From: a virus
Virus record (IMG/VR): IMGVR_UViG_3300008050_000036
Coordinates: 9,606-73,605 of that record
Strand: one strand, 5' to 3'
Length of the DNA: 64,000 bases
Part shown: in pieces, positions 27,598-59,126 of the stretch
Position numbering within the stretch: the stretch's first letter is position 1
How the letters are laid out: every line of letters begins with the position of its first letter
Notes under the pieces: generated by a model
Told to the model about the DNA's origin: nothing
Databases searched by the model: none
Seen by the model: only the letters and a program-made list of their open reading frames with translations
Translations under genes and position numbers: made by a program

Positions 27598-27610
27598 TTT
27601 TTTCAACTCC

Positions 27611-28945: not shown

Positions 28946-28970
28946 TAAACTGCTTGACTTAGTGTTATGG

Positions 28971-33228: not shown

Positions 33229-33575
33229 CTATATCGTTGTGCTGATGGTGAAGAAGGGGCAGGTAATTCTGCTTCCATCTTTCGCCATTCTTCTAATTCT
33301 TGTTGGTGGTCGCTTTTAGCAAGCATATCACTATTGAAACCAAATACCTGTTCATCGTTTTGGTCGCGGTGTAGTGGGTCAAATGTTTCATCAGCCAATG
33401 GTGTGACCGCCCTTAACCACCCTGCCTTTTTCATCATTGTTTCAGGGTCATCAACTGCTTTGAGTAATGATGTATTATGTGATTCTAATGTTTCAATGCG
33501 CTTCCGAAGGGTGCGAATCTCCCCTACCATTTCTTTGAGAAGGTCTGCCGTTGCTTGCCCAATATCACCAGTCAT
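33225..33575 (-). CDS. Coiled-coil head-module protein
   Basis: LLKEMVGEIRTLRKRIETLE heptads. Coupled to neighbours. Confidence 0.75.
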   Translation of the reverse strand: MTGDIGQATADLLKEMVGEIRTLRKRIETLESHNTSLLKAVDDPETMMKKAGWLRAVTPLADETFDPLHRDQNDEQVFGFNSDMLAKSDHQQELEEWRKMEAELPAPSSPSAQRYR

Positions 33576-34590: not shown

Positions 34591-36405
34591 TTAATCAATG
34601 CCTAAACGATTATCTATGTCCTTAATTTTTCTATCCACATTAGATATTCCCGGTGGGTCTAAATCCCTTGCATCACCTTTACTTTGCCCAAACTTAGTAG
34701 AACCACCCCATGCTTTCTTTTTATGGTCCGGCGACCTACCACTACCCTTTCTATGTAATGCGTTTTGGTTCAACCCTATACTACGTAGTGGTGGTAATTC
34801 CGTTCCCATTGTGGTTCGCAATGAACCCGAAATAGGAACAGAACCATGAATAGGGTCAGTGACATTCCTTTTCATAATATCCATCATTGAAGGTGGCAAT
34901 ACCCATTCGCTTGTTTGAACTGGGGTTGGGCCTCCGCCATGCTGACCTGAAGGCATAGGTGGCCCCTGTCCTCCCTGTTCGGGTGGTGCGGCTGGTGGGG
35001 GTGGTGCTTCTTTGTAATCAAATCTTAAACCAGCCACTTGTTCATCACGGAGGTTAGCCTCATAGCCCGCTTGTTTCATTTGCATCATGTTTCTAATTTG
35101 CATTTCATCCTTACGCATAAGCAAAATCTCATCTTCTTCTTCATGTGGTGTCAAATCAATAGTCCATTCCGTGATTTGTAATGCTTCAAGTAATAGAGGG
35201 AATAATCTAAAATTATACATATTTTGACTGGCGGCTAAAGTGCGGTTTGTCACTACAATTTGCATACCTTCGTTATTCAAACCACCGCCCGATACATCAT
35301 TCATAAACACATTAGAAATACCGTAAAACGATGAAATGCGTTGGCGTATGTCGTCTTTGATGGGGATATACTGCAATTCTTCCAGTGTGTCCATCATACG
35401 GACATATTCAATGCCCCCACGCCCACTTTCTGTTTCAACCCCAATTGTAGGTATGTGTTGAGGGTCACGCTCAAGATGTTCCTGTATGTTTCGTGCCGTT
35501 CTCTCCACCGTTTCAAGATTGGATGATTTGATAACCATTACACCTCTTGGCATTCTGCGCTTTTGATATGCTGCATATACATAATTATCCATAGCAATTA
35601 GAGTATTGACTTGTCGCCATAATGTAGCAACGGGTGAACGGCCATATAATTTAGATGGCGACCATTTACTCAAATGTATTACTTCGCCTTCGGTATAGAC
35701 CTGCCCTTTACCTACACCTGCAAGATTCATATAATGAATAGGCACAACAGGCAAACCTGTTTTTGGGCATTTTTCATCTTTATCACTTGTGCGGAATGAC
35801 CTATCTAATAGACTGGTATATTGTTTTCCTCCCCTTATGCCCCGCTTATCACTAACAATACGCATAAAAATTGGGTCTGCTCTTGTAATTTCTTTTATTC
35901 TGTAAAATTGCGGTTTGCCTGAAGTAGGGTCCACAAAGTATTCTTTGGTGAGAATAATGTAGGCATCATCAACGATATTCAAGTCCATTTCAATTTCACG
36001 CAATACTTCAAGAAAAGATTGACCCATTCGGTTGTCATGCTCAAGCAATACCTTTGCATATTCTAATTGTCCTTTGTCTGCGGGGCGCACTTCACCTTCA
36101 CATTCAATACAATTATCCACTTCTTTTTGGTATTCTGTTTCGCATTCCCTACACTTTACCACAAAATTAGATTTCCAATCCCACCCTTTACGGAATGTTT
36201 CGGTAGCCAAATGGTTAAGAATAGAGCGTAATACTAAGCATTCATAAGCCGCAGCGTATAGTGCAGGTATTGTAATTCCCTGTAATAATGCCGGTTCTTG
36301 CACACCACTGGTGAACAAAGGCATTTCAGGGGTTGGTGTGCTATGGCGTTCCATATCCACCCCAAGAGCAGAAAAGAGCCGTTCAATTCGCTTTTTATCA
36401 ACCAT
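34591..36405 (-). CDS. Portal protein
   Basis: VIHLSKWSPSKLYGRSPVATL, RMPRGVM, RQRISSFYGISNVFMND..GGLNNEGMQ are portal motifs. Follows the terminase. Confidence 0.9.
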   Translation of the reverse strand: MVDKKRIERLFSALGVDMERHSTPTPEMPLFTSGVQEPALLQGITIPALYAAAYECLVLRSILNHLATETFRKGWDWKSNFVVKCRECETEYQKEVDNCIECEGEVRPADKGQLEYAKVLLEHDNRMGQSFLEVLREIEMDLNIVDDAYIILTKEYFVDPTSGKPQFYRIKEITRADPIFMRIVSDKRGIRGGKQYTSLLDRSFRTSDKDEKCPKTGLPVVPIHYMNLAGVGKGQVYTEGEVIHLSKWSPSKLYGRSPVATLWRQVNTLIAMDNYVYAAYQKRRMPRGVMVIKSSNLETVERTARNIQEHLERDPQHIPTIGVETESGRGGIEYVRMMDTLEELQYIPIKDDIRQRISSFYGISNVFMNDVSGGGLNNEGMQIVVTNRTLAASQNMYNFRLFPLLLEALQITEWTIDLTPHEEEDEILLMRKDEMQIRNMMQMKQAGYEANLRDEQVAGLRFDYKEAPPPPAAPPEQGGQGPPMPSGQHGGGPTPVQTSEWVLPPSMMDIMKRNVTDPIHGSVPISGSLRTTMGTELPPLRSIGLNQNALHRKGSGRSPDHKKKAWGGSTKFGQSKGDARDLDPPGISNVDRKIKDIDNRLGID

Positions 36406-37672
36406 TGATTATATCCTCCAACCAAGAATCTAAAGTATCAATAGGCACATTCCATGCTTTGAGTAATGTGGTTTGGTGTTGTAAGTCGGCATGTTGAAAT
36501 GCTAATATGCGACCCGCATTTTCATTTCCTTCAAGAGAAGCAAGAATTAAATGGGCTTCGGTTTTCTTTTTATTCAAAAATGGCAAAGCGAGATTTGCTG
36601 CCTTTATCACGGCTTGGTCGCCCTCAATCACAAATTGCTTGCCCTCCCACATAATACCCTCTACACCCAATTCCCTTTTTAGCACAACGGTATAATCTTC
36701 TGCTCGCTTTGAATTAAAAGGTAAAAATAAACGAGGTGAACCAGTGGGTGACATTTCCACCCTACCTTCAACCTCCCATAAATTACCAATAAAGGAGTCA
36801 TATTCTTTTAAGAAAAGTGGGGGTTTATTTGTGCCATAATATAATGTCCTGTCGTCATTTTTAGTGCCTTTACCTACTACTTTAAGGTCATATAAATAGC
36901 CATAGGCTTTTATCAATGAAGCAACTTCTTGTGTAGTGCCTTTTACCCCATATGAACTAATGGTTTGGGCATTCATGTGACCGTTTTTTGTTAAAACCTC
37001 ATTACATGCCTTAAGGATGGTTCGCTCTCGCCTACTTATCCTATTTTCAGCATTAAGGCGCATATCCCATGTTTTCCAAATCTCATCCACTTCTTCATCA
37101 GTATTGGCTTTCTTTAGAGCCACTATGGTTTGGCGTAATGGTAATTCTAAACGGTCAGGGTATTTAGCCAATAAATTATAATCGTTATCTTGAAGGCGTA
37201 AAGTAATTTCATCATTATCATACCACCATTCATATTGCTTCAAAATAGCCCGTTGTTCAGCACGTAATAATGCTAATACACTTGGTATAATCTCATGTTC
37301 ACCACCTTTTTCTAATAATTCTACTAATTTTTCACCCCTTATACCGAAAGTGTCTTTGAAGTATGTTTTTGATAATTGGGGCGGAATAGGGGGTGCATCG
37401 GCAATAACACCGGGTTGAGTGGGTGTGCTTTGTTGTGCATTACCTTGTAATCCAGTTATGTCAGAACCTTTAGTGGCTTGAGATGGTAAAGGAGTATTGT
37501 CTTGACCCTGCGACTCTTGTTGGTTGTTCATATCTTCCATAGCCTGTGTCAATTCTTTTTCTTTTTGTTGAACCTTCAATGAAGCGGGGTCAGTTCCTCC
37601 GCCCGTTGGTAATAACTTCACCAAAGAATCATTTATTGTTTTTATGTCCGGATTCCATTTTATTTGTTTCAT
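36398..37672 (-). CDS. Protein with winged-HTH-like segment and degenerate LAGLIDADG-like domain
   Basis: FIGNLWEVEGRV..PRLFL...LKRELGVEGI...LALPFLNKKKTEA resembles a single LAGLIDADG domain. ATGA overlap with the terminase gives start 37672. Confidence 0.55.
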   Translation of the reverse strand: MKQIKWNPDIKTINDSLVKLLPTGGGTDPASLKVQQKEKELTQAMEDMNNQQESQGQDNTPLPSQATKGSDITGLQGNAQQSTPTQPGVIADAPPIPPQLSKTYFKDTFGIRGEKLVELLEKGGEHEIIPSVLALLRAEQRAILKQYEWWYDNDEITLRLQDNDYNLLAKYPDRLELPLRQTIVALKKANTDEEVDEIWKTWDMRLNAENRISRRERTILKACNEVLTKNGHMNAQTISSYGVKGTTQEVASLIKAYGYLYDLKVVGKGTKNDDRTLYYGTNKPPLFLKEYDSFIGNLWEVEGRVEMSPTGSPRLFLPFNSKRAEDYTVVLKRELGVEGIMWEGKQFVIEGDQAVIKAANLALPFLNKKKTEAHLILASLEGNENAGRILAFQHADLQHQTTLLKAWNVPIDTLDSWLEDIING

Positions 37673-39099
37673 TCCGAACCACCCCACCCTAATCTTTTAG
37701 TCCATGCTTCGGCATCCAACATAACTATATTATCTCTATACTCTTTTGTTGCTTGAACTGCTAATGCTAATGCAATTACTGTGTCATCGTGCTTGCCGAG
37801 CGACTCCATCTTACCGTTTGGCAACAATGTGAACATTGACAACTCATTTAAGAGGTTATCCATGTGTCGGCGTGTTGCGCCTTCATCTTTGTATGGTAAT
37901 GCCAAATGCCGTTGTTCGAAATGTAATTGTAAAGTGTGCATTACTGCTTCTTTACGCATACGGCTCATAGTGAATGGTTTTATGGGTAAATCACTTATTT
38001 CTTTTAATACTTGATGAAATGCTTGAGCGAAGTTATTTGTTTCTAATTCAATAATAACTGGGTTATAGCGGGCATTCAATTCAATAACTTTGTCAATTTG
38101 AGAACTAAAGTCCATCCCCTTTTCGTGGTGCATCCATACCACCCGTTTATGGCGGTTAGCATCCATAGCAATAACAACCATACAAGTGTAATCGGCTTTT
38201 CTATCAGGGCTAATCGCAGGGTCCCACCCAATATAATAATTAACTTGTTCATCATCATCACCATCCATAAGAGCGTTGAACTCCAAAGCCCTGCTGGTAT
38301 CTTTACAAGACTCTAACATATCTTCAGGGAATAAACTCGATTCACTGGCTATCGGCTTACATAAGTATTCTCTTGTGAAAGCAATAGAAGTCATTTCGCC
38401 CCTACGAGTCTGCAAGGCTTCTAAAGACCAGCGTTCAGGCCAAAGTGGATTGCCACTTTTTTCATCAATGGCGGGATATTCCCCCACCCAATAACCTTTC
38501 AAACTCCTTAATTCTTGGTAAAGGTCAGTATATGAAAAAGGTGTTCCTACAATACATAATTGTGCGGTGTGGTGAAGCACTGGTAAAAGGGCAGTATAGA
38601 ACCAAGTAGCAATATGGGCTAATTGTGTAGCGGCTTCGCTTGAAAGTATATCGTCAAGCACTACAATGTCGGGGTGCGCCCCACGAACCGCTTTACCCAC
38701 AGACATAGCATGAATACTGGATTTATTAGTGAACTTGAACTTCTGTTTATTCCAACCTCTTTTTGGTTTAAGGTGCGCTAAAGCAGGAATAGACATTATC
38801 ATTTCATCCATTTTAGCCATGTGTTCAATAGACTGGTGCTGACTGTGTGAAAAGAAAAGCACTTCTGTTCCGGGGTTATAGGCTAATTTCCATAACAAAT
38901 AACATCTAAAAAAAACGGATTTGCCGTGGTCGCGGCTCGCTATAACGCATACTTTGGTATTGTTTTCTGCCGCATCAAACCATTCTTTATGAAAAGAAGC
39001 CAACTGAAAGGCACAAATATCTTCAAAAAAGTATTGAAAATCACGCCGCCCCATATCCCAATCTACTTTATTGGTGAGGTCTAAAACAGCATCCGACAT
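37669..39099 (-). CDS. terL: Terminase large subunit
   Basis: Walker A ASRDHGKS, Walker B IVVLDDIL, coupling motif VGTP, nuclease IGWDPA and HDDTVIALALA. Confidence 0.95.
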   Translation of the reverse strand: MSDAVLDLTNKVDWDMGRRDFQYFFEDICAFQLASFHKEWFDAAENNTKVCVIASRDHGKSVFFRCYLLWKLAYNPGTEVLFFSHSQHQSIEHMAKMDEMIMSIPALAHLKPKRGWNKQKFKFTNKSSIHAMSVGKAVRGAHPDIVVLDDILSSEAATQLAHIATWFYTALLPVLHHTAQLCIVGTPFSYTDLYQELRSLKGYWVGEYPAIDEKSGNPLWPERWSLEALQTRRGEMTSIAFTREYLCKPIASESSLFPEDMLESCKDTSRALEFNALMDGDDDEQVNYYIGWDPAISPDRKADYTCMVVIAMDANRHKRVVWMHHEKGMDFSSQIDKVIELNARYNPVIIELETNNFAQAFHQVLKEISDLPIKPFTMSRMRKEAVMHTLQLHFEQRHLALPYKDEGATRRHMDNLLNELSMFTLLPNGKMESLGKHDDTVIALALAVQATKEYRDNIVMLDAEAWTKRLGWGGSE

Positions 39100-39105: not shown

Positions 39106-40407
39106 TCAACTCTCTTGCCATCCTTGAGGCAAGAGGCTATAATTAACATTGGGTTCTTCTTCTTGTGTCTTACCCATAAATTGTTTTAGCATACCTTGAG
39201 GTAATAATGATGTGTCGGCTGAGGCTAATTTATCTTGAAACTCAGGGCTAAAATTGCCTCTTGATTCTTCGTCAAACATATGAGAAGGTCGGGCATTCAT
39301 AAACTCCTTTGGTAAATCATCATCATTTTTACTAATTTTGAAGTTATCGTGTATAGCGAATGCGTTTGGATTATCAAATGGATTTGCGAATGGGTTTTGT
39401 GCTACGGACCAACTTTGAGCAAAGGCACTTTTATCCACTTCTGTTTCTTTAACACCCTCCACCCTACCATTCGGCTTTAGATGCGCTACTCGCTTTGCTT
39501 CTTTCCTTTTTCCTCGCCTTTCTTCAGCAGCATTTTTTTCTTCATCAGGAGTTATTGTTTGTTGAATGGGGCATTCTTCCTCTTTTTTTGTTTCTGATGG
39601 TGTTGCTGCTGGTGGTGGTGTTGCTGCCGGTGGTGTTTCTGTTGGTGTTGCCGGTGGTGCTGCTGCTGGTGGTGTTTCTGTTGGTGTTGCCGGTGGTGCT
39701 GGTTCTTGAGGGGGTTTCAGCCTATTCATAACTTTTCTCGCGTCACTTGCATGAAGTGTGGTTTCTATGTTATTATCTTTAGGAGGGTTCAGCCTATTCA
39801 TAACTTTTCTCGCCTCATTTGTGGTTTCTATGTTATTATTTTTTATTTTTGTTTTACGGTCAGGTGGTCGTTGAACGGGTCGTTGGAGAGCGGGGCTACC
39901 GGTGGATGCCTCAACTGTTGGTGTTTCTGCTGCTCCGCGCCGCAGGGCTAATAAACGCTGTAAAGCCGCATGTCGTGTGTCGTCTGATACATTTCGCCCT
40001 CTACCACCCCCAAAACGCCCAGTAATGGCGTTTTTCACTTTTCCGGCTATTCTCCTTAAGGTGTGTGGTGAGCCTTGACCTTCAGTAGTATTCCCAACCG
40101 CCGCCCCAAATCTTCCTAATAATGATGGGCCACGTGGGGTTTGTGGTATTGGTTTATTTTGGTGTAGTGCATTGAAGCGGGGCCACCGGCCACCTTCCTC
40201 TTTGTTTTCAAGATATTGTTGTAAATGAGGGTAGCGAGGGGTGGGTGGGGCTTTAGACAAAGGAACATTTGCTTGTTCTTTTTGTAAATTATCCCACACA
40301 TAATTGAAAATAATATCAGAAGATGGTTCTTTACGCAATTGTGTTTTGCCCACCATTTCACTACGGGCTTTCAATAGCAAGTCGTCATATTTATCCATAA
40401 TTAACAC
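39106..40407 (-). CDS. Low-complexity Pro/Thr/Ala-rich protein with internal duplications
   Basis: Repeated NNIETT..ARKVMNRL and PPATPTETPPA. Many hydrophobic-x-K motifs. Confidence 0.8.
   Translation of the reverse strand: MLIMDKYDDLLLKARSEMVGKTQLRKEPSSDIIFNYVWDNLQKEQANVPLSKAPPTPRYPHLQQYLENKEEGGRWPRFNALHQNKPIPQTPRGPSLLGRFGAAVGNTTEGQGSPHTLRRIAGKVKNAITGRFGGGRGRNVSDDTRHAALQRLLALRRGAAETPTVEASTGSPALQRPVQRPPDRKTKIKNNNIETTNEARKVMNRLNPPKDNNIETTLHASDARKVMNRLKPPQEPAPPATPTETPPAAAPPATPTETPPAATPPPAATPSETKKEEECPIQQTITPDEEKNAAEERRGKRKEAKRVAHLKPNGRVEGVKETEVDKSAFAQSWSVAQNPFANPFDNPNAFAIHDNFKISKNDDDLPKEFMNARPSHMFDEESRGNFSPEFQDKLASADTSLLPQGMLKQFMGKTQEEEPNVNYSLLPQGWQES
39629..39839. repeat. Intragenic duplications (34-bp repeat at 39-bp period; ~60-bp duplication with a 9-bp indel)
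   Basis: ggtggtgtttctgttggtgttgccggtggtgctg at 39629 and 39668. ttcagcctattcataacttttctcgc at 39716 and 39788. gtggtttctatgttattat at 39758 and 39821. Confidence 0.85.
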
Positions 40408-41354: not shown

Positions 41355-43171
41355 CTAAAACTCACCTTTACCAATTCCACATATTCTACTGGTATATCCA
41401 TTGACTTAGCCATTTCTCGCCAATCGCCTTTACTATTTAATATGGCTACAACATCAGAAGAAGGGCGGTGTATTTTACCTGCCATGAAAGTAATATCGCT
41501 TGCGTTGTCATATTGCATATTGGTATTGGGCAACATTTTAACTATCTTTTCATTTTGCATAGCCATATCATATTGAACATTCTCTAAAGCCATTTCAATT
41601 TCTTCTTTTGTAAAGAAGTTATACAGGTGTCCTACCCCTGTTCCTACCTTTTCTGCGAGTCTTTCAGCCATGCCTCTCCATCCTTCAGAATAATGTGGCG
41701 CACTACCTGTGCTACCTGACGCAATAGGTTGCACTTGATTAGTATTTAGGTTAAAAGAAGGTTGTTGGGGTATGTTTGGGGGTAAAGGGATATTCACCGG
41801 TGGTGCTGGTCTTTGTCGTGCTACGGGTGGTGCTGGCCCTTGTCGTGCTACGGGTGGTGCTGATGAAGAAGGGGGTGGTGGTCTATTCGGCACTTCCCCT
41901 TGAGGGGGGTTTGCCATTGAGGGGGGTTGATGTTGCACCTGAGTAGTTTTCGGCGGTGCTACACCACCCTCCCAACCAGCCAAAGAAGCCAAACCAACTC
42001 TTAGTGCTTCAATTTGGTGTAGGTTGTTGCCCCCTGCACCAAATCGCTCTCGCCCTATTCTCATAATTTCTTGGGGCGGGGGCATATCTCTTAATCCGTG
42101 ATGTGCGCCAAATTGACCTGCTAATACACTTTTATAATGAGCAGGATTAGACCACGCTCTCCCTCCCCTCTCATCGGGAACTAACGATACACCATAACGG
42201 TCATTATCGGTATGTTCATTGAAATATGCTTTCCAACCATCATCTGCTTGGGTGCGTTGTTGTAAGGCGGCTTCTGCGGCATCAGGTTGAGCAGGTGCAA
42301 CATTAGCCATTTCATTATTGCGAATGTTATAATGAGAATCAATTGGTGTGTGTTGGTGGGGTAAATGGTTGCGGAGAATATCGTGATTAACCCATTTGTC
42401 GCGAATTAGGTCAGGGGTAATTTGTTGCCCCGTTAATGATAATTCCCTCATCATAGAAATAATATGTTTGTAGGCTTCGTGGTTAATATATACGCTATGT
42501 GGTTGCGCCCTATGGCTTTCTATGAAATGTTTTGTTCCACCGCTATGCCCTTGTGCTTTTCTTACTTCACTGAGTCCTTCGCTATATGGTCTTGCCCATG
42601 ATTCCGCCATCATGTTTTCTTTATCACGATTACCTATGCGGATTTGGGGAACTCCGTAAGCATCCATTTGCCAAGCCTTTTTTTTATCCATTGGCCCCCA
42701 AACACCTTCGGCCCATTTTTTATTTAGGATATAATGGCCCAAATCGCTATCAAAAGCATGAGGTAGGGGCATTGGTATATTTTCATCGGTCTTACCTTCA
42801 CTATGGCGTTTGGCTCTATCTTGTTCCCACTTGGCGTTTTGTAAATCAATTGCTTGGTTGATAGTAGGCGCACCTGCGCTAATGCCCCGTTGTAATGCTT
42901 GCATGTAGGCTTCTTCTTGCCCTTGTTGTGGCCCTGCGTGAATTATCATAGCATCTTCTCTCGATATTAAACCTTGATAAATAGCCTCCCAAACGGCATC
43001 TGCTTCAACCCCTCTTAGATTACCTCCACCAATATCTCCACTTGGTATAGGGAATTGTTCTAAGCCATTAGGACCAGCATTGGCCGCTAATTGTTGTAGT
43101 AATGTTTCAAAATCAAAATGCCCCATCCCTTTAATGAGGGTGCATCTATCAATGATAGCCCAAGCATTCAT
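41351..43171 (-). CDS. Hypothetical protein (606 aa), Pro-rich linker, helical C-terminal domain
   Basis: Long ORF with ATGA overlaps. PPVARQxPA duplication. N-terminus MNAWAII...LIKG. Confidence 0.8.
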   Translation of the reverse strand: MNAWAIIDRCTLIKGMGHFDFETLLQQLAANAGPNGLEQFPIPSGDIGGGNLRGVEADAVWEAIYQGLISREDAMIIHAGPQQGQEEAYMQALQRGISAGAPTINQAIDLQNAKWEQDRAKRHSEGKTDENIPMPLPHAFDSDLGHYILNKKWAEGVWGPMDKKKAWQMDAYGVPQIRIGNRDKENMMAESWARPYSEGLSEVRKAQGHSGGTKHFIESHRAQPHSVYINHEAYKHIISMMRELSLTGQQITPDLIRDKWVNHDILRNHLPHQHTPIDSHYNIRNNEMANVAPAQPDAAEAALQQRTQADDGWKAYFNEHTDNDRYGVSLVPDERGGRAWSNPAHYKSVLAGQFGAHHGLRDMPPPQEIMRIGRERFGAGGNNLHQIEALRVGLASLAGWEGGVAPPKTTQVQHQPPSMANPPQGEVPNRPPPPSSSAPPVARQGPAPPVARQRPAPPVNIPLPPNIPQQPSFNLNTNQVQPIASGSTGSAPHYSEGWRGMAERLAEKVGTGVGHLYNFFTKEEIEMALENVQYDMAMQNEKIVKMLPNTNMQYDNASDITFMAGKIHRPSSDVVAILNSKGDWREMAKSMDIPVEYVELVKVSFR

Positions 43172-44913
43172 TTTTTACCCACCAAACCTATTTCTTGGGC
43201 GGCTGCTACATCACCGAAGCGATAAGCAGAAGTTTCTTCTTCACGAATTAAAGATTGGTCGCCGGGCGCAGTAGCAACTTCTTTGTTTGCTTGACCTCCC
43301 CGTTTAGCCGCTGAACCTAATTCGGGAGTGGCTTTCTTCAATCCCTCTACAATTTTGAGCAATTTTTTCAAATCCCGCTTCAAAGCCAATATATCAGACC
43401 TGCTAAAGTTTTTCCAATCTTTAGCAGATATTTGCATATCTGCTCTTTTTTCAAGCATTTTGAGGGGGTCGCCCCCTAATGGGTCGCCTATAAGTGAACC
43501 ACTTTCTTTGTTTTTTCCTTTGAAATGTGACAGTGAAGTGCCTTTACTGGATGATGGTTGAGAAGGCATTTTAGTGCCTTTGCCCCCCAAACCTATTGTT
43601 TGAACTTTCATTGCATCAGTTAATCCCCCTGCTGCCCCACGGTGTCCCGTCATATGGCGTGGTAATGCCCCCGTTTGACGAGCCATTTTCTCATTAGCCA
43701 ATTTGCGTTGATATGCTATTGGGTCACGGAGTCTAAGGGGGATTGCCTTTGACCGCGGGTTGCCCCCCATCATGCGCCGTGGGTGAACTTGCCGTTTTGT
43801 TTCACGCGATACATTTTGTTCAGCCGCACCAGCCCTTCTTGCAGTAATGCCTTTTATGTCACGGCTTCCTCTTTTTTTCTTATCTTTCATCTTACGCTTA
43901 CGCTTGCGCTTGCGCTTGGCTTTAGACTTTTTTTCTTCTTCATCAGATTCTTCATCGGAGTCATACCTCCGACCACGTGTTTTGCGTTTTCCTTTTACAA
44001 TGTCACCAATGAATGGTGGGTCTGCCGAAGCGTTTTTCTGTTGCCAATTATTACTTGATTCCTTACTATTTCCAAAATCATAAATCCCTGCATCTAACTC
44101 ATTGATTCGCCCAGTATCATCATAATTAGGGTCATCTACAAAATCATCAGGTAATTTGCTGGCGGCGGGAACAGCCGCATGTGCTGGTGTAAATGCAAGC
44201 CATTTAAGTTTGTCAAGAGGGGGTGCATCTTTCAATTTTTTATATGGTGCTAAATAATCATTAGCCAAATTAGTAAATTGTTCGGGGGAAGGCGCGCTAC
44301 CCTGTTCTTCTAAAAAACGAGCAATCGTTTCACCATCAACTGCGCCTCCTACTACTGCGTTTTTATTACCATCACCTGCAATAAACCCCTGACCAAACCT
44401 CCGTGGGTTTTTATCATATTCTTCACGTAATCGCTCTATTATATGTTCTTCTAAAGGATTATCCTTAACAATAGACCAAGCATCTTCAAAGGCATCATTA
44501 CTACGCCCAAAAATCATCCCCGGTCCTTCTCTTGAAATAGGTCCTACATTAGCCCCTGTTGAAACACCAATACCCCTTAAATGCCCCATATCTACCCCAA
44601 GACCACTTTCTAATAATTCGCTTTCGCCATTAGTCATTGGTGTATTATCAATAGTCGCCTCAATTTCTTCGGGGTCAAGACTAATGTGTGGTATGCCGCC
44701 TTCTAATTCTTTGAAGGCTCTTTCTTTACGTGCTTTAGGGTCCCGTTGCTCAATACTTTCATTTGAAGCGGCTTCACGGTTATGATGTGATAAACCATCA
44801 GCATCTTCATTGGGGTTCACATCATAGTCACCGACCATTTCACGGGGATGAAAGCCCCCAGTGAACTCTTGGACCCTAAGTGTATCATCAACACCTCTTG
44901 GTGATTTAGGCAT
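43168..44913 (-). CDS. Multi-module protein with internal AFEDAWSIVK tag and Lys/Arg-rich tract
   Basis: RSNDAFEDAWSIVKD (tag at 44464..44493). KKSKAKRKRKRKRKMKDKKKRG basic tract. Confidence 0.8.
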   Translation of the reverse strand: MPKSPRGVDDTLRVQEFTGGFHPREMVGDYDVNPNEDADGLSHHNREAASNESIEQRDPKARKERAFKELEGGIPHISLDPEEIEATIDNTPMTNGESELLESGLGVDMGHLRGIGVSTGANVGPISREGPGMIFGRSNDAFEDAWSIVKDNPLEEHIIERLREEYDKNPRRFGQGFIAGDGNKNAVVGGAVDGETIARFLEEQGSAPSPEQFTNLANDYLAPYKKLKDAPPLDKLKWLAFTPAHAAVPAASKLPDDFVDDPNYDDTGRINELDAGIYDFGNSKESSNNWQQKNASADPPFIGDIVKGKRKTRGRRYDSDEESDEEEKKSKAKRKRKRKRKMKDKKKRGSRDIKGITARRAGAAEQNVSRETKRQVHPRRMMGGNPRSKAIPLRLRDPIAYQRKLANEKMARQTGALPRHMTGHRGAAGGLTDAMKVQTIGLGGKGTKMPSQPSSSKGTSLSHFKGKNKESGSLIGDPLGGDPLKMLEKRADMQISAKDWKNFSRSDILALKRDLKKLLKIVEGLKKATPELGSAAKRGGQANKEVATAPGDQSLIREEETSAYRFGDVAAAQEIGLVGKK

Positions 44914-45331
44914 GACGATAACTCCTTAAATCTTCATAAGCCAGTATTACCTTTTGTGGTAATGTCAAATACCATTCTGCTAATGACGGCATTTTACCAT
45001 ATACTAAACCCAACGGTAAGAATGAAAGCACCAAATTAGAAAGTATTTTTTCAGATTCAAGAACTCCTACTTGTGGAGTCTTTTGTGCTAAATCGTGAAA
45101 AAGCATCCTAACAAGAGCAATACTACCAAAGGCAGATGAGGTCACTTCTTTTTCACACATTATACCAAAAGCCCCTGTTCCTATGGACCATTTACTTACT
45201 ACTGCTTCTAAAGCATCACAAAGATGGTAGGCTTCTTTTATTGAGCCGATTATCTCTTTACCGTGTAAAGCCACTTCATAATCGCTACCTTTGAGCATAA
45301 GCGAAAGAATAGATTGATATTTTTTTGACAT
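44906..45331 (-). CDS. Hypothetical helical protein
   Basis: 141 aa ORF overlapping the next gene start. Confidence 0.65.
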   Translation of the reverse strand: MSKKYQSILSLMLKGSDYEVALHGKEIIGSIKEAYHLCDALEAVVSKWSIGTGAFGIMCEKEVTSSAFGSIALVRMLFHDLAQKTPQVGVLESEKILSNLVLSFLPLGLVYGKMPSLAEWYLTLPQKVILAYEDLRSYRHA

Positions 45332-45361
45332 TTCAATCCCTGCTTTGTAGTAGTCTACGAT

Positions 45362-45739
45362 TCAAAATATAACCCTTACACTATTCCCACAAAGGGGGCA
45401 TTCATAATACGGTTCAACGCCTCCCGTTGCCTTTCTTGCCACTTTTTTCATTGGGTAATTGTGACAATTAGCGCAATCAACCTTGTTTGAATGTGGTCGT
45501 GGCATTTGAGCCATCAAGTGTTCTTGTTCATCTTCACCTTTCAGCACAGACCAGCCTATGCGGGATGCTCGGTCATTTGACTTCTTTTTATCAGAATCAA
45601 ACGCCAATTTATCTTTATGGTGTTCACCTTGCTCAAAATCTCGGTCACGGTTTGCTGTATCGGTTTCATCTTTACAAGTAGGGCAAAGGCCGCTTTCACA
45701 CTCCCTACATTCTTCATTACAATCTTCACATTTAGCCAT
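45362..45739 (-). CDS. Two-module Zn-finger protein with internal tag (SRIGWSVLK)
   Basis: MAKCEDCNEECRECESGLCPTC...SNDRASRIGWSVLKG...CANC...CPLC. Start re-assigned to 45739. Confidence 0.75.
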   Translation of the reverse strand: MAKCEDCNEECRECESGLCPTCKDETDTANRDRDFEQGEHHKDKLAFDSDKKKSNDRASRIGWSVLKGEDEQEHLMAQMPRPHSNKVDCANCHNYPMKKVARKATGGVEPYYECPLCGNSVRVIF

Positions 45740-45741
45740 CT

Positions 45742-45882
45742 TCAATCCCTCTCCGTTGTTCCGCAAGTTCGGCATCTGCGTGTGCCATCTTTTCTTTCAA
45801 CCATGCGTTTATTATCACAGCATTGGTCTTTCACCACAGACCAACCTGTGCGGAATGCTCGGTCATTGGACTTTTCGGTCAT
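45742..45882 (-). CDS. Tagged Cys-rich micro-protein (46 aa; not in ORF track)
   Basis: Hand translation MTEKSNDRAFRTGWSVVKDQCCDNKRMVERKDGTRRCRTCGTTERD. ATGA overlap upstream. Confidence 0.7.
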   Translation of the reverse strand: MTEKSNDRAFRTGWSVVKDQCCDNKRMVERKDGTRRCRTCGTTERD

Positions 45883-46022
45883 AGAATACCCCCCCAACAA
45901 TCGTCACCGCAACATTCAGAACACATCCCACATTCTAAACAAGAAGCATCTTCATCACAATCAGGACATTTTCTCGCTTTTGCTTTCACCACAGCCCAAC
46001 CTATGCGGAATGCTTCACCCAT
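45879..46022 (-). CDS. Tagged Cys-rich micro-protein (47 aa; not in ORF track)
   Basis: Hand translation MGEAFRIGWAVVKAKARKCPDCDEDASCLECGMCSECCGDDCWGGIL. GGGGGTG RBS upstream. Confidence 0.7.
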   Translation of the reverse strand: MGEAFRIGWAVVKAKARKCPDCDEDASCLECGMCSECCGDDCWGGIL

Positions 46023-46024
46023 CT

Positions 46025-46306
46025 TCAAGCACCCCCTTTTGGTATGCAATCAGGATTAGCACAAGCACGATTTCTGCTCGGCCCTTGTGGTAATCCACAT
46101 CTATTACAATTCCATGTCCCTACCTTTCCTTTTCCTGTTTTGGGGTCTGTTCCGTGAGGATGACCTTTCACCACAGCCCAACCTGTGCGGAATGCTTTGC
46201 TAACATCACACTTCGGGCAATAAGATTCAGAAATACCACCGACACCACCCCCTCTATGGGTTTGGGTCATTGGCCCTTTACATTTTCTGCACACCTTTTC
46301 ACCCAT
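46025..46306 (-). CDS. Two-module Zn-ribbon protein with internal tag (AFRTGWAVVK)
   Basis: MGEKVCRKC...CPKCDVSKAFRTGWAVVKG...CNRC...CANPDC. Start re-assigned to 46306. Confidence 0.7.
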   Translation of the reverse strand: MGEKVCRKCKGPMTQTHRGGGVGGISESYCPKCDVSKAFRTGWAVVKGHPHGTDPKTGKGKVGTWNCNRCGLPQGPSRNRACANPDCIPKGGA

Positions 46307-47009
46307 CTTCAAGCACCCCCGCATCAGCCAAAGCCTTACGCATAACTCGCCATTCATCAGGCGATTTCTCGGAGAAATGGGCTTGAATAACCGTAAGAAC
46401 TGATACTTGTTCATTAGAACCTATACTTTCAGCCTTTTCGATGTATTCGGCAATATCTGTTAATGTATCGCGTATTTCGCGGTGCATTTTTACGGCGGTG
46501 TCTAATCCTCTATAATCCAGTATGCCTTCGTCATTTCTTTCTTCTTCAAGCATACTTACATGAGAATTGAATAAAGAATTGAGGCGTTGGAGGTTATTTT
46601 CGGTTTGTATCATAGCCCCTCGCACACTACTCAAAGCGGCTGGCAATACCTCCATTTCCACTTGCCGTTGGATAATGGGTGCTGTGTGCATTTCAATGTG
46701 GTGTTCTACATTACTTGAGGTCATTTCCAAATCAAGTGCCATATCAGCAGCACTAACCAAACCATTCATTACGGCTTCCTCAATGTTAGCCCTTTCAGGG
46801 TGTGTGCATAAAGGGCATTGTGAATTACTATTATTATGATATTCACCGGAATGTCGCCTCATATGACGGTGAGCAGTGCCTTCTGCCCATATTTTATTAG
46901 CATCTAAATCAACTACATCTAAAACACCAGTGCGTATGCGTTCTTCGTAGCCATCCCGTTCAGGGTGCATACAAAAGGGACAATTGCGCCTTGTCTTACG
47001 ACCTACCAT
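46299..47009 (-). CDS. Duplicated CxxC-HP Zn/HTH protein with coiled coil; possible terminase small subunit
   Basis: CPFCMHPER...HMRRH and CPLCTHPER...HIEMH repeats, then a helical oligomerisation-like region. TerS role is inference. Confidence 0.5.
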   Translation of the reverse strand: MVGRKTRRNCPFCMHPERDGYEERIRTGVLDVVDLDANKIWAEGTAHRHMRRHSGEYHNNSNSQCPLCTHPERANIEEAVMNGLVSAADMALDLEMTSSNVEHHIEMHTAPIIQRQVEMEVLPAALSSVRGAMIQTENNLQRLNSLFNSHVSMLEEERNDEGILDYRGLDTAVKMHREIRDTLTDIAEYIEKAESIGSNEQVSVLTVIQAHFSEKSPDEWRVMRKALADAGVLEDG

Positions 47010-47047
47010 TATTTAAGCGCATACCGTTGCACTTTAAGGCTCTTATG

Positions 47048-47245
47048 CTATTTTTTGGTATGAACATTACAAAATTGACCGTTCCCCATCTTACCATTCC
47101 TACACCTTTTACCACTTTTAGTAATCGCTACGCAAACCGTTGGTGTTTCGTCATCAACTACTGGTGGTTGTATTTTAGGGGGTTCAATATACTGAACTGG
47201 TTGATAGGCAGGGTATTGGTAATTGTTAATACCGAAAGGCGGCAA
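47048..47245 (-). CDS. Small protein with C-terminal C3H Zn knuckle
   Basis: CVAITKSGKRCRNGKMGNGQFCNVH. Confidence 0.65.
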   Translation of the reverse strand: MPPFGINNYQYPAYQPVQYIEPPKIQPPVVDDETPTVCVAITKSGKRCRNGKMGNGQFCNVHTKK

Positions 47246-50739: not shown

Positions 50740-50783
50740 TTATGAGGGTTATGATTATTTATGGTGTTATAGTGCGACTTTAC

Positions 50784-51308
50784 ATGGCGGGTCCTAATCT
50801 CACCGAAGCGGTAATGGCTATGCGCTCGTTTCATGCAGCAAAAAACGCTTCACCCGCTAACCCTAATTTGGTGTCGTCATGGGTTCAGCGTCAAACAAAT
50901 GCTGACATTGCACCTAATTTCTCACACAATGCCGCTATTGCACTACTACACTACTACCAGCACCCACTATATGGTAATTCCAGTAATTTACCATCAACGG
51001 CTCAAGGGTGGCTACCTTTAATGCAACCCGCCGAAAACATACTATCTAATGAAGAATCGTGGATAGATACCCAAATTACGGCTAATATCAATACAATGCT
51101 AACCCGTATTTTCACTACTGATGATATGTGGCTTCACCAATGGGGTGCAATAAACAACTTCCCGCCTGATACTCCTTTGGCTTTCATAATCAATTTTTTA
51201 ATTAACCGCTTGATGAATTGTGAGGGTGCTAATGGGCCAAGTGGTGCAGGGGGAATATCTTTCACCGAACATATATTACCATCAGGTGATGATAACTCCC
51301 TACCTTAA
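50784..51308 (+). CDS. Hypothetical protein (one of two plus-strand genes)
   Basis: Start re-assigned to MAGPNL at 50784. Converges on 51305..52513 with overlapping TTAA stops. Confidence 0.75.
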   Translation: MAGPNLTEAVMAMRSFHAAKNASPANPNLVSSWVQRQTNADIAPNFSHNAAIALLHYYQHPLYGNSSNLPSTAQGWLPLMQPAENILSNEESWIDTQITANINTMLTRIFTTDDMWLHQWGAINNFPPDTPLAFIINFLINRLMNCEGANGPSGAGGISFTEHILPSGDDNSLP

Positions 51309-52520: not shown

Positions 52521-54155
52521 TCACCTGTTCCTGTTAAAATGCCCTAAAACGGCATCAGCCATTGCCCTTGCTACTAAGGGATTAACGGCATTTCCTATTC
52601 CTCGTTGTGATTGCGCTGCGGTTGTATCGCCTAACTTATAATTCATCGGGAAGTTCCCCAAAGCCAAAACATCTTTTTGACTCAATGGCCCTACTCCTAA
52701 ATGTCCGGGTATATTACTACTGGTTAATGACGACATATGGGTATCTATTGGTTTAGTGCCATGCCATGAATACCCCTTCTTTTCAGAAGTCCACGGCGAG
52801 GGTGTATGCCCGCCACCCCTACCGGGAAATGGTGTGCCATGATGTGTTATATGAGGTTCTGTTAATAATTTTGTGGCAATTTTTGGGTCAATTACTCCAT
52901 TAGCGAGCAAACCTAAAATATAATCAGATTTACTTTCAAAATTATCGTGTTCTTCTTCCTCCATATGGGGCAAAAAGTCTTTTACTGTGTTCCAATTTGA
53001 CCTAAACTTTTGTCCGGGTGCTTCATCAAATGGTCTTTCAATGTCAATAAGTTGGTCTAATCCATAAAATCTATTACGTTGTTGTGCGCTGCCAAAATCA
53101 GCAGCATAAGTAGGCTTGCTTCTTTCTACCATCCGTTTAACCCATGCGGGAGGTTGCTTCCATTTTTGCCGACCTGATGCTAAAATGGGTTCTTTGATAT
53201 TGGGGGTTTGTTCAAAGGCTGATACAAATTGGTTTTTACCTAATTTACGGCGGAGTTCATTCGCAAGGTCAAAGGTATAATTCTGTAATAACATGGTTTG
53301 AGCATGGTCTTTTTCTCCCGGCCTTGCATTACTACTATTGATACATGGTGCTGATTGAGATAAAAATACTGGCCTACCGTCTGCATGGTCTATCATGCGC
53401 CCTGCCAATTCTTTATGTCCTAATTCGCCCTCTCCCTCGCCCAATGTCGCTTCAATTAACTCATGGTCGGGAAAATTGGCTCTAAATCGTTCTGCGGCGA
53501 TTGGGTCATTTTCAACACCAATGCCCGGTTCTAAGCCACTCATCTCTAATCCAACATCAGTGCCACCCCACCCTGAAAATGTAGTATTGCCTACTACATT
53601 ATGGGGGTTTTTTTGTTTTTTGGGGCGGTTCATAAGGTTATGATAAGCAGAATATATTTCAGGGTCTAAATAATCTCGCCCCTTGAGTAAAGTGTCCCAT
53701 GCTATTTCAAACGCATCTTCTGAGGCATAAAAGCCCATTTCACGTGCTTCTTTACCCTCCAATCCGGCAAACTTGCATTTATCCCATTGGTCCAATACTT
53801 GGCGAGCATAAAAATGAAACTCCGTTGGTGGTAATTCAGGCTTACGGCTTGTGACATTATTTTGATAGAACGGGCCGGGTATATCACCTGCAAAATCACG
53901 CAAAGCCGCTTCCAATTCTTCACAACTCATTGCATCATAGCCTTCTATAATTTTTGATTCATAGCCACGGGGTTGAATATCTGATTGCGCCAAGAGATTA
54001 TACCACATTTCCCTTGCTTTACCACAACATGGGTCATTCCCCATGTCTATCTGCTCAAAATCAGGGATAGTATCTTCATCGGGTAATAGAATATCATTAA
54101 CCCGTTCCCGCAAATTACGTGGTTCAATGGCGGAAGCCTCTAAATCACCTACCAT
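52521..54155 (-). CDS. Two-module protein: Cys-containing helical domain, tag linker, C5-cytosine DNA methyltransferase
   Basis: Motif I FSGWGG, II VENDP, IV SAPC, VI FEQTP (ENV variant), VIII AADFGSAQQRNRFY, X IGNAVNP. Preceded by ASEDAFEIAWDTLLKG. Confidence 0.8.
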   Translation of the reverse strand: MVGDLEASAIEPRNLRERVNDILLPDEDTIPDFEQIDMGNDPCCGKAREMWYNLLAQSDIQPRGYESKIIEGYDAMSCEELEAALRDFAGDIPGPFYQNNVTSRKPELPPTEFHFYARQVLDQWDKCKFAGLEGKEAREMGFYASEDAFEIAWDTLLKGRDYLDPEIYSAYHNLMNRPKKQKNPHNVVGNTTFSGWGGTDVGLEMSGLEPGIGVENDPIAAERFRANFPDHELIEATLGEGEGELGHKELAGRMIDHADGRPVFLSQSAPCINSSNARPGEKDHAQTMLLQNYTFDLANELRRKLGKNQFVSAFEQTPNIKEPILASGRQKWKQPPAWVKRMVERSKPTYAADFGSAQQRNRFYGLDQLIDIERPFDEAPGQKFRSNWNTVKDFLPHMEEEEHDNFESKSDYILGLLANGVIDPKIATKLLTEPHITHHGTPFPGRGGGHTPSPWTSEKKGYSWHGTKPIDTHMSSLTSSNIPGHLGVGPLSQKDVLALGNFPMNYKLGDTTAAQSQRGIGNAVNPLVARAMADAVLGHFNRNR

Positions 54156-54255
54156 ATAATCAATCCCTAAAGGTTTGCTTTCAAAAACATTTAGGTTATT
54201 TTAACCAAAAACAATAGTATTGGACCCATAATGTTCAATCCTCAAAGGGTATGTT

Positions 54256-54268
54256 AGGGTTGTCAGCC
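54256..54268 (+). promoter_or_regulatory. 13-bp motif AGGGTTGTCAGCC upstream of the thermosome (copy 2)
   Basis: Identical to 50727..50739. Ends 40-43 nt before ATGs 54308/54311, upstream of TTGATAGG. Confidence 0.55.
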
Positions 54269-54307
54269 ATGCAAGCATTGATAGGCTATGCCGTTTTGCC
54301 CCCATCC

Positions 54308-55879
54308 ATGATGAACGGACCCAATGGACCCATTTTTATTTTGAAGGAAGGAACAGAAAGGAGTCAAGGCAGGAATGCTCAATTGAATAACATAGCAGCG
54401 GCAAGGGCTGTCGCAGATGCAGTAAGAAGCACTTTGGGTCCAAAAGGAATGGATAAAATGCTGGTTGATGAAGGCGGTGATGTGACTATTACTAATGATG
54501 GTGCTACTATCCTTCGTGAAATAGCCATCGACCACCCTGCGGCCAAGATGATTATTGAAGTAGCGCAAACCCAAGAGCAAGAATGCTATGACGGGACAAC
54601 CAGTGCGGTAATCCTTGCGGGTGAATTACTCAAGCGTTCTGAGGAATTGATAGACCAAAATGTTCATCCAACTACAATATGCAAGGGGTATCGTATGGCG
54701 GGCAAATACATACAAAAGTTATTACCCAATTATGAATTACAAGATGTGCCACTAATCAATATCGCCACTACTGCCCTTACTGGTAAATCGGCTGATTCGT
54801 TTAAGGACAATCTCGCAACCATTTGTGTTGAAGTAGTGGAGTTAATTGCAGATAACGGGAATGTTAATCTTGATAATATCAATATAGTGAAAGCGGTAGG
54901 TGGTTCAGGTGAAGATAGTCGCATAATTCATGGTTTGGTTATTGATAAAGACCCCGTTCATTCAGCCATGCCTCTTTTACTACAAGAAACAGAATATCAT
55001 ACAGTAGCCATTATCAATAGTGCGCTCGAAGTTAAACAAACAGAAATGGATGCCAATATCCAAATTACCGACCCAAACCAAATAGAAGCGTTCCTTGCTA
55101 AAGAAGAAGCCTATTTGAAGGGCATTGTGGCTAAAATCATTGAAAGTAAGGCACAAATACTCATCTGTCAGCGTGAAATAGACGATATGGTGAAACATTA
55201 CCTTGCTAAAGCGGGCATCATGGCTCTTGAAAAAGTAAAAACCTCAGACATAGAAAACCTTTCGATTGCTACTGGTGCAGACATTATTAGCAACCTTGAC
55301 GACTTATCCTATGATTCTTTGGGCTTTTGTGCTGAAATGGAGGTTAAGAGGGTTGGTGAACATAATATGACCTTTTTTACTAATCTTCACAAAGATGCCG
55401 TCACATTATTACTTCGGGGTGGCACTGTTCATTATGTTGAAGAAGTAGAACGGGCTTTTGACGATGCGGTAGGTGTTGTATCATTGGCATACAAAGACGG
55501 TGCAGTATTAACTGGTGGGGGTTCAATTCATACTGCTCTTTCACTTAAATTAGATAAATACGCAAAAAATATCACAGGGCGTGAACAAATGGCTATTGAG
55601 GCATTTGCTAAGGCACTTGAAGTAATCCCTCGCACTTTAGCAGAAAACGCTGGTCTTGACCCTGTGGATGAAATGATGCACCTCCGTCAAGCACACAGTC
55701 TTAAAGCGGGCAAACACATGGGTATTGAGATAGAAAATGGCGGCACATGGGATATGCGAATGGCAAATGTGTATGAGCCAAAGCGTGTTATTAGTCAAGC
55801 ATTAAAATCAGCAGTAGAAACGGCCATTATGGTTCTGCGTATTGATGATGTAATATCATCTAAGAAAAAGGGTCAATGA
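54308..55879 (+). CDS. ths: Group II chaperonin (thermosome subunit)
   Basis: [27 protein letters not shown] (GDGTT variant), [36 protein letters not shown]. Confidence 0.95.
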
Positions 55880-58692: not shown

Positions 58693-59126
58693 TTACCCCC
58701 CTTTGGGTAAATGCCGTATAATGCTAACATTTTCCGTCTTTCATCTTCGTCAATACCCGGAGTCGCAGACCAAGCACCATATTCTTGAAACCTCTCCCAA
58801 TCATTATCCACTTTGGATTGAGCAACCCTCTTTTCCTCATCAGACGCATCATCAGGTAATTTGGTGCGAACAGCATTCCAAATATCATCAGTATGGGGTG
58901 GGTTAAGGGCTTGGTGGGTGGATTCATGTGCTAAGATTTGCATTACCCTGTTCATTCGCTCTTTGTCTGAGGTCATGTTTCTAAATGCAGGTTCAATACG
59001 ATTTGAAAGATTGACGAATGCTTCATCGGTGTTCATATCATATCCACCGGCCATTAGGATATTAGGAAAACCGCCCATAAAACGAAAGTCTTTGACTATG
59101 AGCCACGCTTGTTCAAATGCACTCAT
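58689..59126 (-). CDS. Leader-tagged HExxH zinc-metallopeptidase-like protein
   Basis: MSAFEQAWLIVK leader (ATGA overlap, start 59126). ILAHESTHQA and downstream QEYGA. Confidence 0.75.
   Translation of the reverse strand: MSAFEQAWLIVKDFRFMGGFPNILMAGGYDMNTDEAFVNLSNRIEPAFRNMTSDKERMNRVMQILAHESTHQALNPPHTDDIWNAVRTKLPDDASDEEKRVAQSKVDNDWERFQEYGAWSATPGIDEDERRKMLALYGIYPKGGK

Follow-up and report, generated by a model that had tools for sequence, protein, structure and literature searches.

The DNA analysed here, referred to as the window, is a stretch of 64,000 nucleotides (nt) of the virus record IMGVR_UViG_3300008050_000036, in which four short cysteine-rich genes, A to D, stand in a row on the minus strand (positions 45,362 to 46,306), each containing one copy of a ten-residue peptide (the tag) exemplified by AFRTGWAVVK. 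As judged from assembled sequences, the repeats coding for this tag are in-frame recombination joints, and this recombination role of tag-coding DNA is what is new here and the main result. The best explanation of the data as a whole combines recombination within the island formed by these genes with a tag that would load its carriers into the capsid, and a probability of roughly 0.6 is assigned to it.

The island consists of hypervariable cassettes between two conserved genes, designated gpZ and gpY, and lies just upstream of the terminase/head module. Four cassette genes are present, translationally coupled as far as their layout indicates, and the plan common to them, as deduced from the translations, is an optional N-module, the ten-residue tag and a C-module. 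The features are given below in the direction of reading, with the means of their detection in brackets.

46299..47009, minus strand: gpZ, a conserved protein of 236 amino acids (aa) with two CxxC-HP-ER knuckles and a weak DUF7367 match; upstream border of the island (map of open reading frames (ORFs), 17 IMG/VR relatives).
46298..46320, minus strand: junction copy 1, 23 nt, with a G-rich Shine-Dalgarno-like run, the gpZ stop and the gene A start ATG-GGT-GAA (repeat search).
46025-46306, minus strand: gene A, 93 aa, with a CxxC...CxxC N-module, an internal tag and a second Cys module (ORF map; called gene in a public collection).
46166..46195, minus strand: tag of gene A, AFRTGWAVVK; breakpoint of both deletion variants, X2 and X7, described below (translation, contig comparison).
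46014..46036, minus strand: junction copy 2, identical to copy 1, with the gene A stop and the gene B start (repeat search).
45879-46022, minus strand: gene B, 47 aa, with an N-terminal tag (residues 4-13) followed by an 8-Cys module (ORF map; called gene in a public collection).
45984..46013, minus strand: tag of gene B, AFRIGWAVVK; breakpoint of X7 (translation, contig comparison).
45742-45882, minus strand: gene C, 46 aa, with an 8-residue leader, the tag and a 4-Cys module; ATGA overlap with the stop of B (ORF map).
45829..45858, minus strand: tag of gene C, AFRTGWSVVK; breakpoint of X2 (translation, contig comparison).
45731..45753, minus strand: third junction copy, degenerate (74%), with the stop of C and the start of D (repeat search).
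45362-45739, minus strand: gene D, 125 aa, with a Cys-rich N-module, an internal tag variant and a C-terminal zinc-ribbon-like module (ORF map; called gene in a public collection).
45539..45568, minus strand: tag of gene D, ASRIGWSVLK, with S for F; 4.3 bits against the tag profile (translation, profile).
44906..45331, minus strand: gpY, a conserved helical protein of 141 aa; downstream border of the island (ORF map, relatives).
43168..44913, minus strand: a conserved Lys/Arg-rich protein of 581 aa with an internal tag at 44464-44493 (ORF map, relatives).

A repeat search recovered the tag-coding repeats as one family of four direct copies (45538, 45828, 45983 and 46165) with 63-100% identity over 46 nt, three of the four sharing 28-29 of the 30 nt of the tag, and minus-strand translation gave the peptides AFRTGWAVVK, AFRIGWAVVK, AFRTGWSVVK and ASRIGWSVLK. 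Both results are in agreement with an earlier account of this DNA made from its letters only (the sequence-only reading), which had also placed a different tiny Zn-finger-like peptide after each tag; the translations of A, B, C and D each have a distinct Cys-rich stretch there. The exact 23-nt repeat (46014 and 46298), described there as containing a ribosome-binding site (RBS), a stop and an ATG and as being read in different frames by the two upstream genes, was confirmed by the translations: gpZ, whose last codons and stop fall within copy 1, reads ...GVLEDG-stop, and gene A reads ...GGA-stop, one frame over. With up to three mismatches allowed the junction occurs at these two sites only, and two or more matches were obtained in 0 of 100 shuffled sequences. 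A G-rich stretch precedes the start codon of each of genes A-D by 8-10 nt, and the genes abut or overlap through ATGA or TGA-AG-ATG.

Two ORFs of 108 and 158 aa overlie the array on the plus strand; tag conservation, Cys patterns, protein-level homologs and gene coupling are all features of the minus-strand frames. An exact look-up in a public protein collection found A, B and D as called genes and did not find C, and gene B with one substitution was also present in an independent 50-kb ENA contig. The 90%-identity cluster that includes gene B has as its representative an unrelated membrane protein of 397 aa, derived from Logan assemblies, which was taken as a clustering artefact. An Rfam search gave nothing near any gathering score. 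A bacterial-type scan showed no enrichment of promoters or terminators on the coding strand: promoter matches remained at chance level, and the terminator-like matches lay on the non-coding strand, except one within gpY.

Contigs from four public runs belonging to four studies (X2, X4, X7 and X8) were compared with positions 44900-47050 of the window. A 10.6-kb contig of X2 (depth 11.4) skips 45828-46164, so that the C tag is joined to the A tag over 12 letters of ambiguous origin, and its flanks showed 0 mismatches over 928 + 886 nt. In X7, a 223-nt contig (depth 2.6) skips 45983-46164, the B tag being joined to the A tag with an ambiguity of 20 letters. Both contigs, from runs of different studies, match the window fully where they cover it beside the joint. 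Both deletions are in frame, the N-module of A being joined to the C-module of C (X2) or of B (X7). In X4 and X8, contigs break off or become unlike the window at 45540, 45576, 45734, 45866, 46303, 46164 and 46198, all of which are tags or junctions; parts of the array left uncovered in X4, X7 and X8 were not scored as absence. The longest exact run common to the recombining copies is 19-20 nt, and the crossovers fall within 12-20 nt of plain identity.

As all these sequences are metagenome assemblies and the region is repeat-rich, the array or its variants might be assembler chimeras formed at short repeats, an explanation that we regard as hardly credible. The joints are unlikely to be assembly merges because the shared exact runs of at most 20 nt are shorter than the 31-mers which we take to be the assembly unit of these contigs. 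Furthermore, ENA and JGI contigs of independent origin also contain genes B and D, the 1.8 kb of X2 flanks show no difference from the window, and the same logic is seen in the related arrays of 14 other contigs.

The cassette content was then compared among relatives. For gpZ, 17 relatives (48-72% identity) were obtained from IMG/VR; ORFs were mapped in 11 of them, the other six having the same tag lists as a mapped one, and three further loci found by DNA patterns gave 14 mapped relatives in all. These carry from zero to four cassettes between gpZ and gpY, mostly tagged and mostly Cys-rich, as follows.

Four cassettes between gpZ and gpY: the window and L035.
Three cassettes and a remnant: L020.
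Two cassettes: L012.
One cassette: L017, L001, L002, L007, L016 and L032.
No cassette: L004, L006, L010, L014 and L011.
Cassettes after gpY: two in L017, L001, L002, L004, L006 and L007, none elsewhere.

Tagged Cys-rich cassettes were also located upstream of a homolog of 39106-40407, the gene before TerL (L033:520-1289), and, in a more distant virus, tagged cassettes lie inside the head module beside a homolog of 33225-33575 (L055:2396-2779). The forecast that relatives would differ by presence or absence of cassettes, with breakpoints at the repeats, was borne out by these counts and by the X2 and X7 joints.

Exchange of modules at the tag was observed in several relatives. In L020, which has 23-mer junctions in common with the window (821 nt apart), a 109-aa gene begins with the N-module of A up to the tag and continues with another C-module, and a 74-aa gene has another N-module followed by the C-module of B. 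The 100-aa gene of L012 is composed of the N-module of a 63-aa gene of L035 and the C-module of a 97-aa gene of L035, joined at the tag. Seven matches were obtained when gene D was searched against 1.84 billion representative proteins, among them a 68-aa protein with the D N-module and the tag followed by a stop, a 79-aa protein with a short leader, the tag and the D C-module, two proteins with other N-parts before the D C-module, and two 48-aa versions consisting of the ribbon alone. Since both split and joined forms of the D modules were found, the tag at a C-terminus, the tag at an N-terminus and the fusion all exist. A search of IMG/VR for close relatives of gene D gave just one distant locus, and the C-module of gene C had no relative among the loci compared.

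At the DNA level gpZ is 68-72% identical to its relatives, and in the same comparisons the tag stretches (30-47 nt) are 90-100% identical, the A N-module 91% over 146 nt and the B C-module 95% over 127 nt. A unit of junction plus N-terminal tag resembling the start of gene B (54 nt at 89%) stands at a different genomic site in L033. The exact 27-nt tag sequence was found in four viral and 15 metagenome stretches, which together with the window make 28 sites with 21 distinct flanks. On this sequence evidence the cassettes move between diverged virus backbones.

The sequence-only reading had proposed that the array grows by repeat-mediated duplication or insertion of RBS-ATG-tag units, as a nursery in which new genes are made. 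The first part stands insofar as turnover mediated by the repeats is supported by the comparisons, whichever its direction, growth or loss; the events, however, look like in-frame fusions, fissions and half-swaps and not like additions of RBS-ATG-tag units. Three of the four tags are away from the gene start (two internal, that of C after the 8-residue leader). The making of new genes in place is likewise not supported, because homologs of the A, B and D modules occur in other loci, combined differently, so that these modules are drawn from a mobile pool held in common.

Dozens of unrelated proteins of this lineage carry the tag, which is thus portable; it is mostly N-terminal and also internal or C-terminal. 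A loose DNA pattern, F-x3-W-x-(hydrophobic)2-K, was counted on the coding and on the other strand, with the reversed pattern as control. The 73.6-kb record gave 13 coding-strand and 0 other-strand matches (reversed control 0 and 0), three relatives gave 14/0, 3/2 and 10/1, and five further relatives 6/0, 11/0, 15/0, 15/0 and 4/1; the reversed-pattern controls over all records were 0-1, and the tag pattern in two haloarchaeal viruses gave 0 and 0. A peptide regular expression applied to 10 loci gave 75 tags, of which 74 are on the coding strand; about 60 of the 75 begin 2-5 residues past a start codon (the start rule gives 61, at least one being miscalled). An alignment of 47 N-terminal segments showed no variation at M, F, W and K and a conservation of at least 90% at two Ala positions; seven of the ten tag positions are constrained, and the final Lys was never replaced by Arg (47/47 N-terminal tags). 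N-terminal tags are preceded by M-T/S and internal ones usually by S/A-N-D-R. From this pattern we infer an N-capped amphipathic helix that has F, W and both aliphatic residues along the same face and Lys at the end. A profile of the tag run over the 971 frames of the window gave 12 sites at 10.7-32.7 bits, with weaker variants below. In the 581-aa protein the tag sits exactly where an extra segment of 100-150 residues begins, a segment absent from five distant homologs; the protein has a long Lys/Arg/Glu-rich middle, and in three homologs the tag is degenerate and longer by one residue.

Tag carriers of at least 30 aa (n = 73) were grouped by BLAST into 56 clusters, of which 46 are singletons, seven are pairs and three have 4-5 members, and few were recognised by Pfam, among these GP88-like and DUF6321 proteins. 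The adjacency of genes A-D and the near-identity of three of their tag copies could be expected of an ordinary tandem family of small zinc-ribbon paralogs, in which the tag would be the family motif and the repeats duplication leftovers. We consider this very improbable, as the same peptide occurs on all those unrelated clusters and in N-terminal, internal and C-terminal positions, and the regions flanking the tag in A-D are without mutual similarity. Since a tenth or more of the genes have it, the tag offers a handle on many orphan proteins at once, and finding its partner would give dozens of orphan proteins a shared fate.

Further carriers and tag-like motifs were noted along the window. 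A first tag array at 58692-63896 (minus strand) comprises eight consecutive or nearly consecutive genes of 106-450 aa, otherwise unrelated, which start with M-T/S/N-A/S-F-D/E-x-A-W-x-L/I-L/V/F-K; one of them matches the PHROG 'ParB C-terminal domain' (E 2e-35). A C-5 cytosine DNA methyltransferase (52521-54155, minus strand) has an internal tag-like motif at about residue 150 with one extra residue after W (5.3 bits), and a 99-aa Cys-rich protein (59123-59422, minus strand) has an N-terminal tag variant with F for W (6.5 bits). In four carriers (60343-61053 on the minus strand of the window, L027:5075-5617, L029:32-634 and L028:13999-15231) the tag is followed by M-P-x-Y-H-G-T...L..IL..GL, which resembles the His motif of PARP-like ADP-ribosyltransferases. 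This PARP-like reading of the YHGT carriers was set aside as no more than a lead: the one Pfam match (E 0.0075) is below the cut-off, and an AlphaFold model with a mean pLDDT of 44 was unusable.

The record from which the window is taken measures 73.6 kb and is estimated to be 69% complete. Nearly all long ORFs of the window are co-oriented on the minus strand; only two long genes, those of a thermosome and of an unannotated 188-aa ORF at 50742-51308, are on the plus strand. Family searches of the window proteins assigned the following genes.

37669-39099, minus strand: TerL.
34591-36405, minus strand: portal.
27611-29044, minus strand: S78 prohead protease, to which a long scaffold-like region is fused at the C-terminal side.
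26440-27606, minus strand: HK97-type major capsid protein (MCP).
54251-55879, plus strand: group II chaperonin of the thermosome type (Cpn60_TCP1, E 1e-166).

The same searches identified a tail tube protein and a tape measure protein. The nearest annotated MCPs are from haloarchaeal tailed viruses (33% identity), and in marine metagenome collections both the MCP family and the protease family exceed 1400 members, the longest contigs measuring about 110 kb. In the surface ocean, magroviruses rank with the most abundant of the uncultured viruses, and the role of most of their genes is unassigned. Those of group A, which infect Marine Group II archaea, are characterised in excerpts of their description by an encoded thermosome and halovirus-like head genes (PMC5434244). 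The window thus belongs to a magrovirus-like marine archaeal tailed virus, because it combines a thermosome with an HK97-type MCP, an S78 protease, a portal, TerL, a tail tube and a tape measure, all except the thermosome on one strand. No description of such a tag or island was found in the portions of the magrovirus literature searched (PMC5434244, PMC11706807 and PMC10160649 among it).

Within the island, the tag DNA (30-46 nt) and the 23-nt stop/RBS/start junction serve as short homologies for recombination, and cassettes pass between diverged backbones by these joints too. A crossover between tag copies is always in frame because every copy stands in codon register, so that any such event gives a complete new protein, and fusions of this kind are found among co-circulating variants. 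The crossover links the front half of a gene with the rear half of a different one or removes the intervening DNA, and the reverse event splits a gene; the island thereby offers a view of quick diversification of small proteins. At the protein level the tag may dock its carrier on one common partner. Tagged small soluble proteins would be loaded into the procapsid and delivered with the DNA, the S78 prohead protease possibly clipping after the invariant Lys, and the Cys-rich mini-domains would be compact, exchangeable cargo modules.

Procapsid loading as the purpose of the tag has, in our estimate, close to an even chance. It is favoured because the carriers are many, small, diverse and fast-changing and lie beside or inside the packaging-head module on the same strand, and because they include a Lys/Arg-rich protein and a methyltransferase with tag-like motifs, in line with the logic of the capsid targeting sequence (CTS) of T4 and of DarB of P1. 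The T4 internal proteins lose their CTS through cleavage by gp21, and to our knowledge a role of tag-coding DNA as a recombination joint has not been described for T4. According to excerpts of a report on T4, the CTS loads diverse internal proteins that counter host defences and is, as in IPI-III and Alt, a short peptide common to unrelated, fast-changing small proteins, coded near the head genes of a tailed virus with a prohead protease, the signal alone being conserved (PMC3012670). The island resembles it in the short peptide common to diverse small carriers and in its place near the head genes of a tailed virus with a prohead protease, and one peptide on unrelated proteins of one virus is what the 73 carriers in 56 clusters represent. 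The sequences, however, are unrelated, the host is archaeal, the carriers are largely Cys-rich mini-domains, and the signal is not confined to the N-terminus as in T4: about 60 of the 75 tags are N-terminal, and within the island just that of B stands at the start, that of C following its leader and those of A and D being internal, while C-terminal cases exist elsewhere. A likeness in capsid loading, and in cleavage, for which the virus has an S78 protease gene and the invariant Lys, is putative. From the compact T4 IPI*, as presented in the same excerpts (PMC3012670), we infer that very small domains stabilised by zinc would be well suited as cargo that has to pass a tail.

In P1, the N-terminal 30 residues of DarB suffice for capsid loading, and the Dar system, as far as extracts of its report go, parallels the capsid-loading reading of the island by a terminal loading signal and anti-defence cargo, a methyltransferase being among the candidate carriers here; the Dar proteins differ in having no consensus signal (PMC9024508), whereas one consensus is found on all carriers of the present virus. 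A fuller scenario, in which the DNA of a universal tag acts as an in-frame joint for constant fusion, splitting and half-swaps, a kind of exon shuffling without introns, that yield an ever-changing set of two-module zinc mini-proteins, loaded into the capsid and injected as an anti-defence arsenal, is tentative and on balance unlikely in its entirety. If capsid loading is true, the tag could be used to direct chosen cargo into the capsids of archaeal viruses, and the set of cassettes would be a record of an arms race with Poseidoniales hosts.

The tag might instead dock a partner outside the virion, such as a host hub, the viral thermosome, the replication machinery or a protease/unfoldase, the carriers then being unpackaged takeover or adaptor proteins and the shuffling remaining the same. 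The seven constrained positions with the invariant Lys fit any specific protein-protein contact; carriers such as the methyltransferase (tag-like motif), the GP88-like and DUF6321 proteins and the weak PARP-like candidate (E 0.0075, below the cut-off) could act in the cytoplasm; the head proteins are without a receptor-like motif; and the lineage, unlike the tag-free haloviruses, carries a chaperonin. We nevertheless hold such a partner to be rather unlikely. Tagged genes run in the same direction as the genes for packaging and head formation and lie next to or inside that module at four sites, which suggests late co-expression with procapsid proteins. As for the thermosome, it looks like a recent host acquisition in magroviruses, according to excerpts of their description (PMC5434244), and very small Zn-type domains would hardly need a chaperonin.

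Improbable, in our view, is that the tag is mainly a processing site at which the prohead or a host protease cuts after Lys, A and D being mini-polyproteins. The strict conservation of Lys, the encoded S78 prohead protease and the location of internal tags exactly between independent modules are what such a site would lead one to expect. On the other hand, MCP and the scaffold, the usual substrates, are without such a site, F-x3-W-x-hydrophobic-hydrophobic N-capped by S/T-N-D is more suggestive of the face of a helix than of a protease substrate in extended form, and C-terminal tags with 0-6 residues after them would gain nothing from cutting. A literature search on HK97 protease cleavage sites returned nothing.

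Several observations weigh against the combined reading of island recombination and a capsid-loading tag. With respect to recombination, the evidence for variants consists of assembled contigs and not of reads, X7 being represented by a single short and shallow contig and X2 by a single contig, and the runs compared did not include one spanning the A-B-C order of the window itself. Use of the same codon for identical residues was 0.486 for island-type tags vs 0.455 for others in a sample not chosen by tag DNA; with no excess of codon sharing, tag DNA is thus no dedicated site. It is the peptide that is conserved in general; high DNA identity is local and recent, and its use by recombination looks opportunistic. 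Conservation of the tag at the DNA level as such a site had been indicated by a first count biased by loci fetched with the tag, and was rejected after the unbiased count gave no excess. With respect to the micro-proteins, synonymous and non-synonymous differing codons were few (5 vs 4 and 3 vs 5), and the tag region in the model of D has a pLDDT of about 60 and is helical in part only. With respect to loading, no tag-like motif was detected in MCP, portal, protease-scaffold or TerL, so that the genome offers no hint of a receptor; the scaffold tail ...D-G/A-W-x-A-L-E-E-L, conserved in 5/5 sequences, is outside the 40 best tag-profile matches among the 971 window frames; and internal and C-terminal tags are unlike the strictly N-terminal signal of T4.

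For the recombination itself, the closest parallels are found in other systems. Taken as a whole, the present system resembles CTS cargo of T4 coupled with modular shuffling at repeats as in T4-type hyperplastic regions, with the difference that its repeat is coding and in frame. The hyperplastic regions of T4-type phages with PeSL elements, according to excerpts of their report, have short repeats between small non-essential genes, at which insertions, deletions and replacements end (PMC2839356). Indels between close relatives likewise end at short repeats in the island. PeSLs, however, are non-coding units of promoter and stem-loop terminator (PMC2839356), whereas the island repeats lie in coding sequence and in stop/start overlaps and the exchanges are in frame, giving chimeric proteins. 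Integron cassettes differ from the island, in which no integrase or recombinase family was detected among 50 window proteins, the array has no inverted repeats, and crossovers lie in 12-20 nt of plain identity. Polymorphic toxins exchange their C-terminal modules at a conserved pre-toxin motif (VENN in CdiA, the core end in Rhs). They are similar to the island in that a short peptide borders the exchangeable modules and its DNA provides the homology for swapping, and dissimilar in that the island proteins are far smaller, with no toxin/immunity pair or secretion system, and both sides are exchangeable.

Regarding the micro-proteins themselves, two CxxC-type knuckles with a spacing fit for binding one zinc were recognised in A (two pairs), C and D, and B has 8 Cys per 25 residues with irregular spacing. 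Pfam gave no family at cut-off for the cassette proteins. The AlphaFold model of D had a mean pLDDT of 64, its C-terminal module being three-stranded with a pLDDT of 77-89. A Foldseek search with this model gave no match at E <= 0.001; the best, non-significant structural neighbours of the C-terminal module were RPB9/TFIIS-type zinc ribbons (about 40 residues, root-mean-square deviation about 3 A). The label 'Zn-finger-like', applied to these peptides by the sequence-only reading, has its basis in the CxxC spacing and the moderately confident model of the D C-terminus. Among homologs the D C-terminal module is 49-68% identical at the protein level with its Cys ligands mostly kept, and B agrees with L020 in all residues of its 30-residue Cys core, although the stretch compared has 3 codons with synonymous differences. 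The coupled architecture, the conservation of D and B and the model of D thus lend indirect support to A-D being real micro-proteins. As to the bordering genes, gpY had no family or structure match, and neither gpY nor gpZ had a PDB sequence match of note.

At the left end, a coding-strand tag match, FNQGWSVVK, was found at 7198-7224 of the record (2.4 kb before the window start), probably within a giant ORF that runs off the left end of the window. Positions 3-12876 of the window (minus strand) are occupied by two giant ORFs of >2566 aa and 1731 aa, the second with a Laminin_G_3/concanavalin-like domain, and an excerpt of PMC11706807 refers to Poseidoniales viruses as having a large LamG-like protein.

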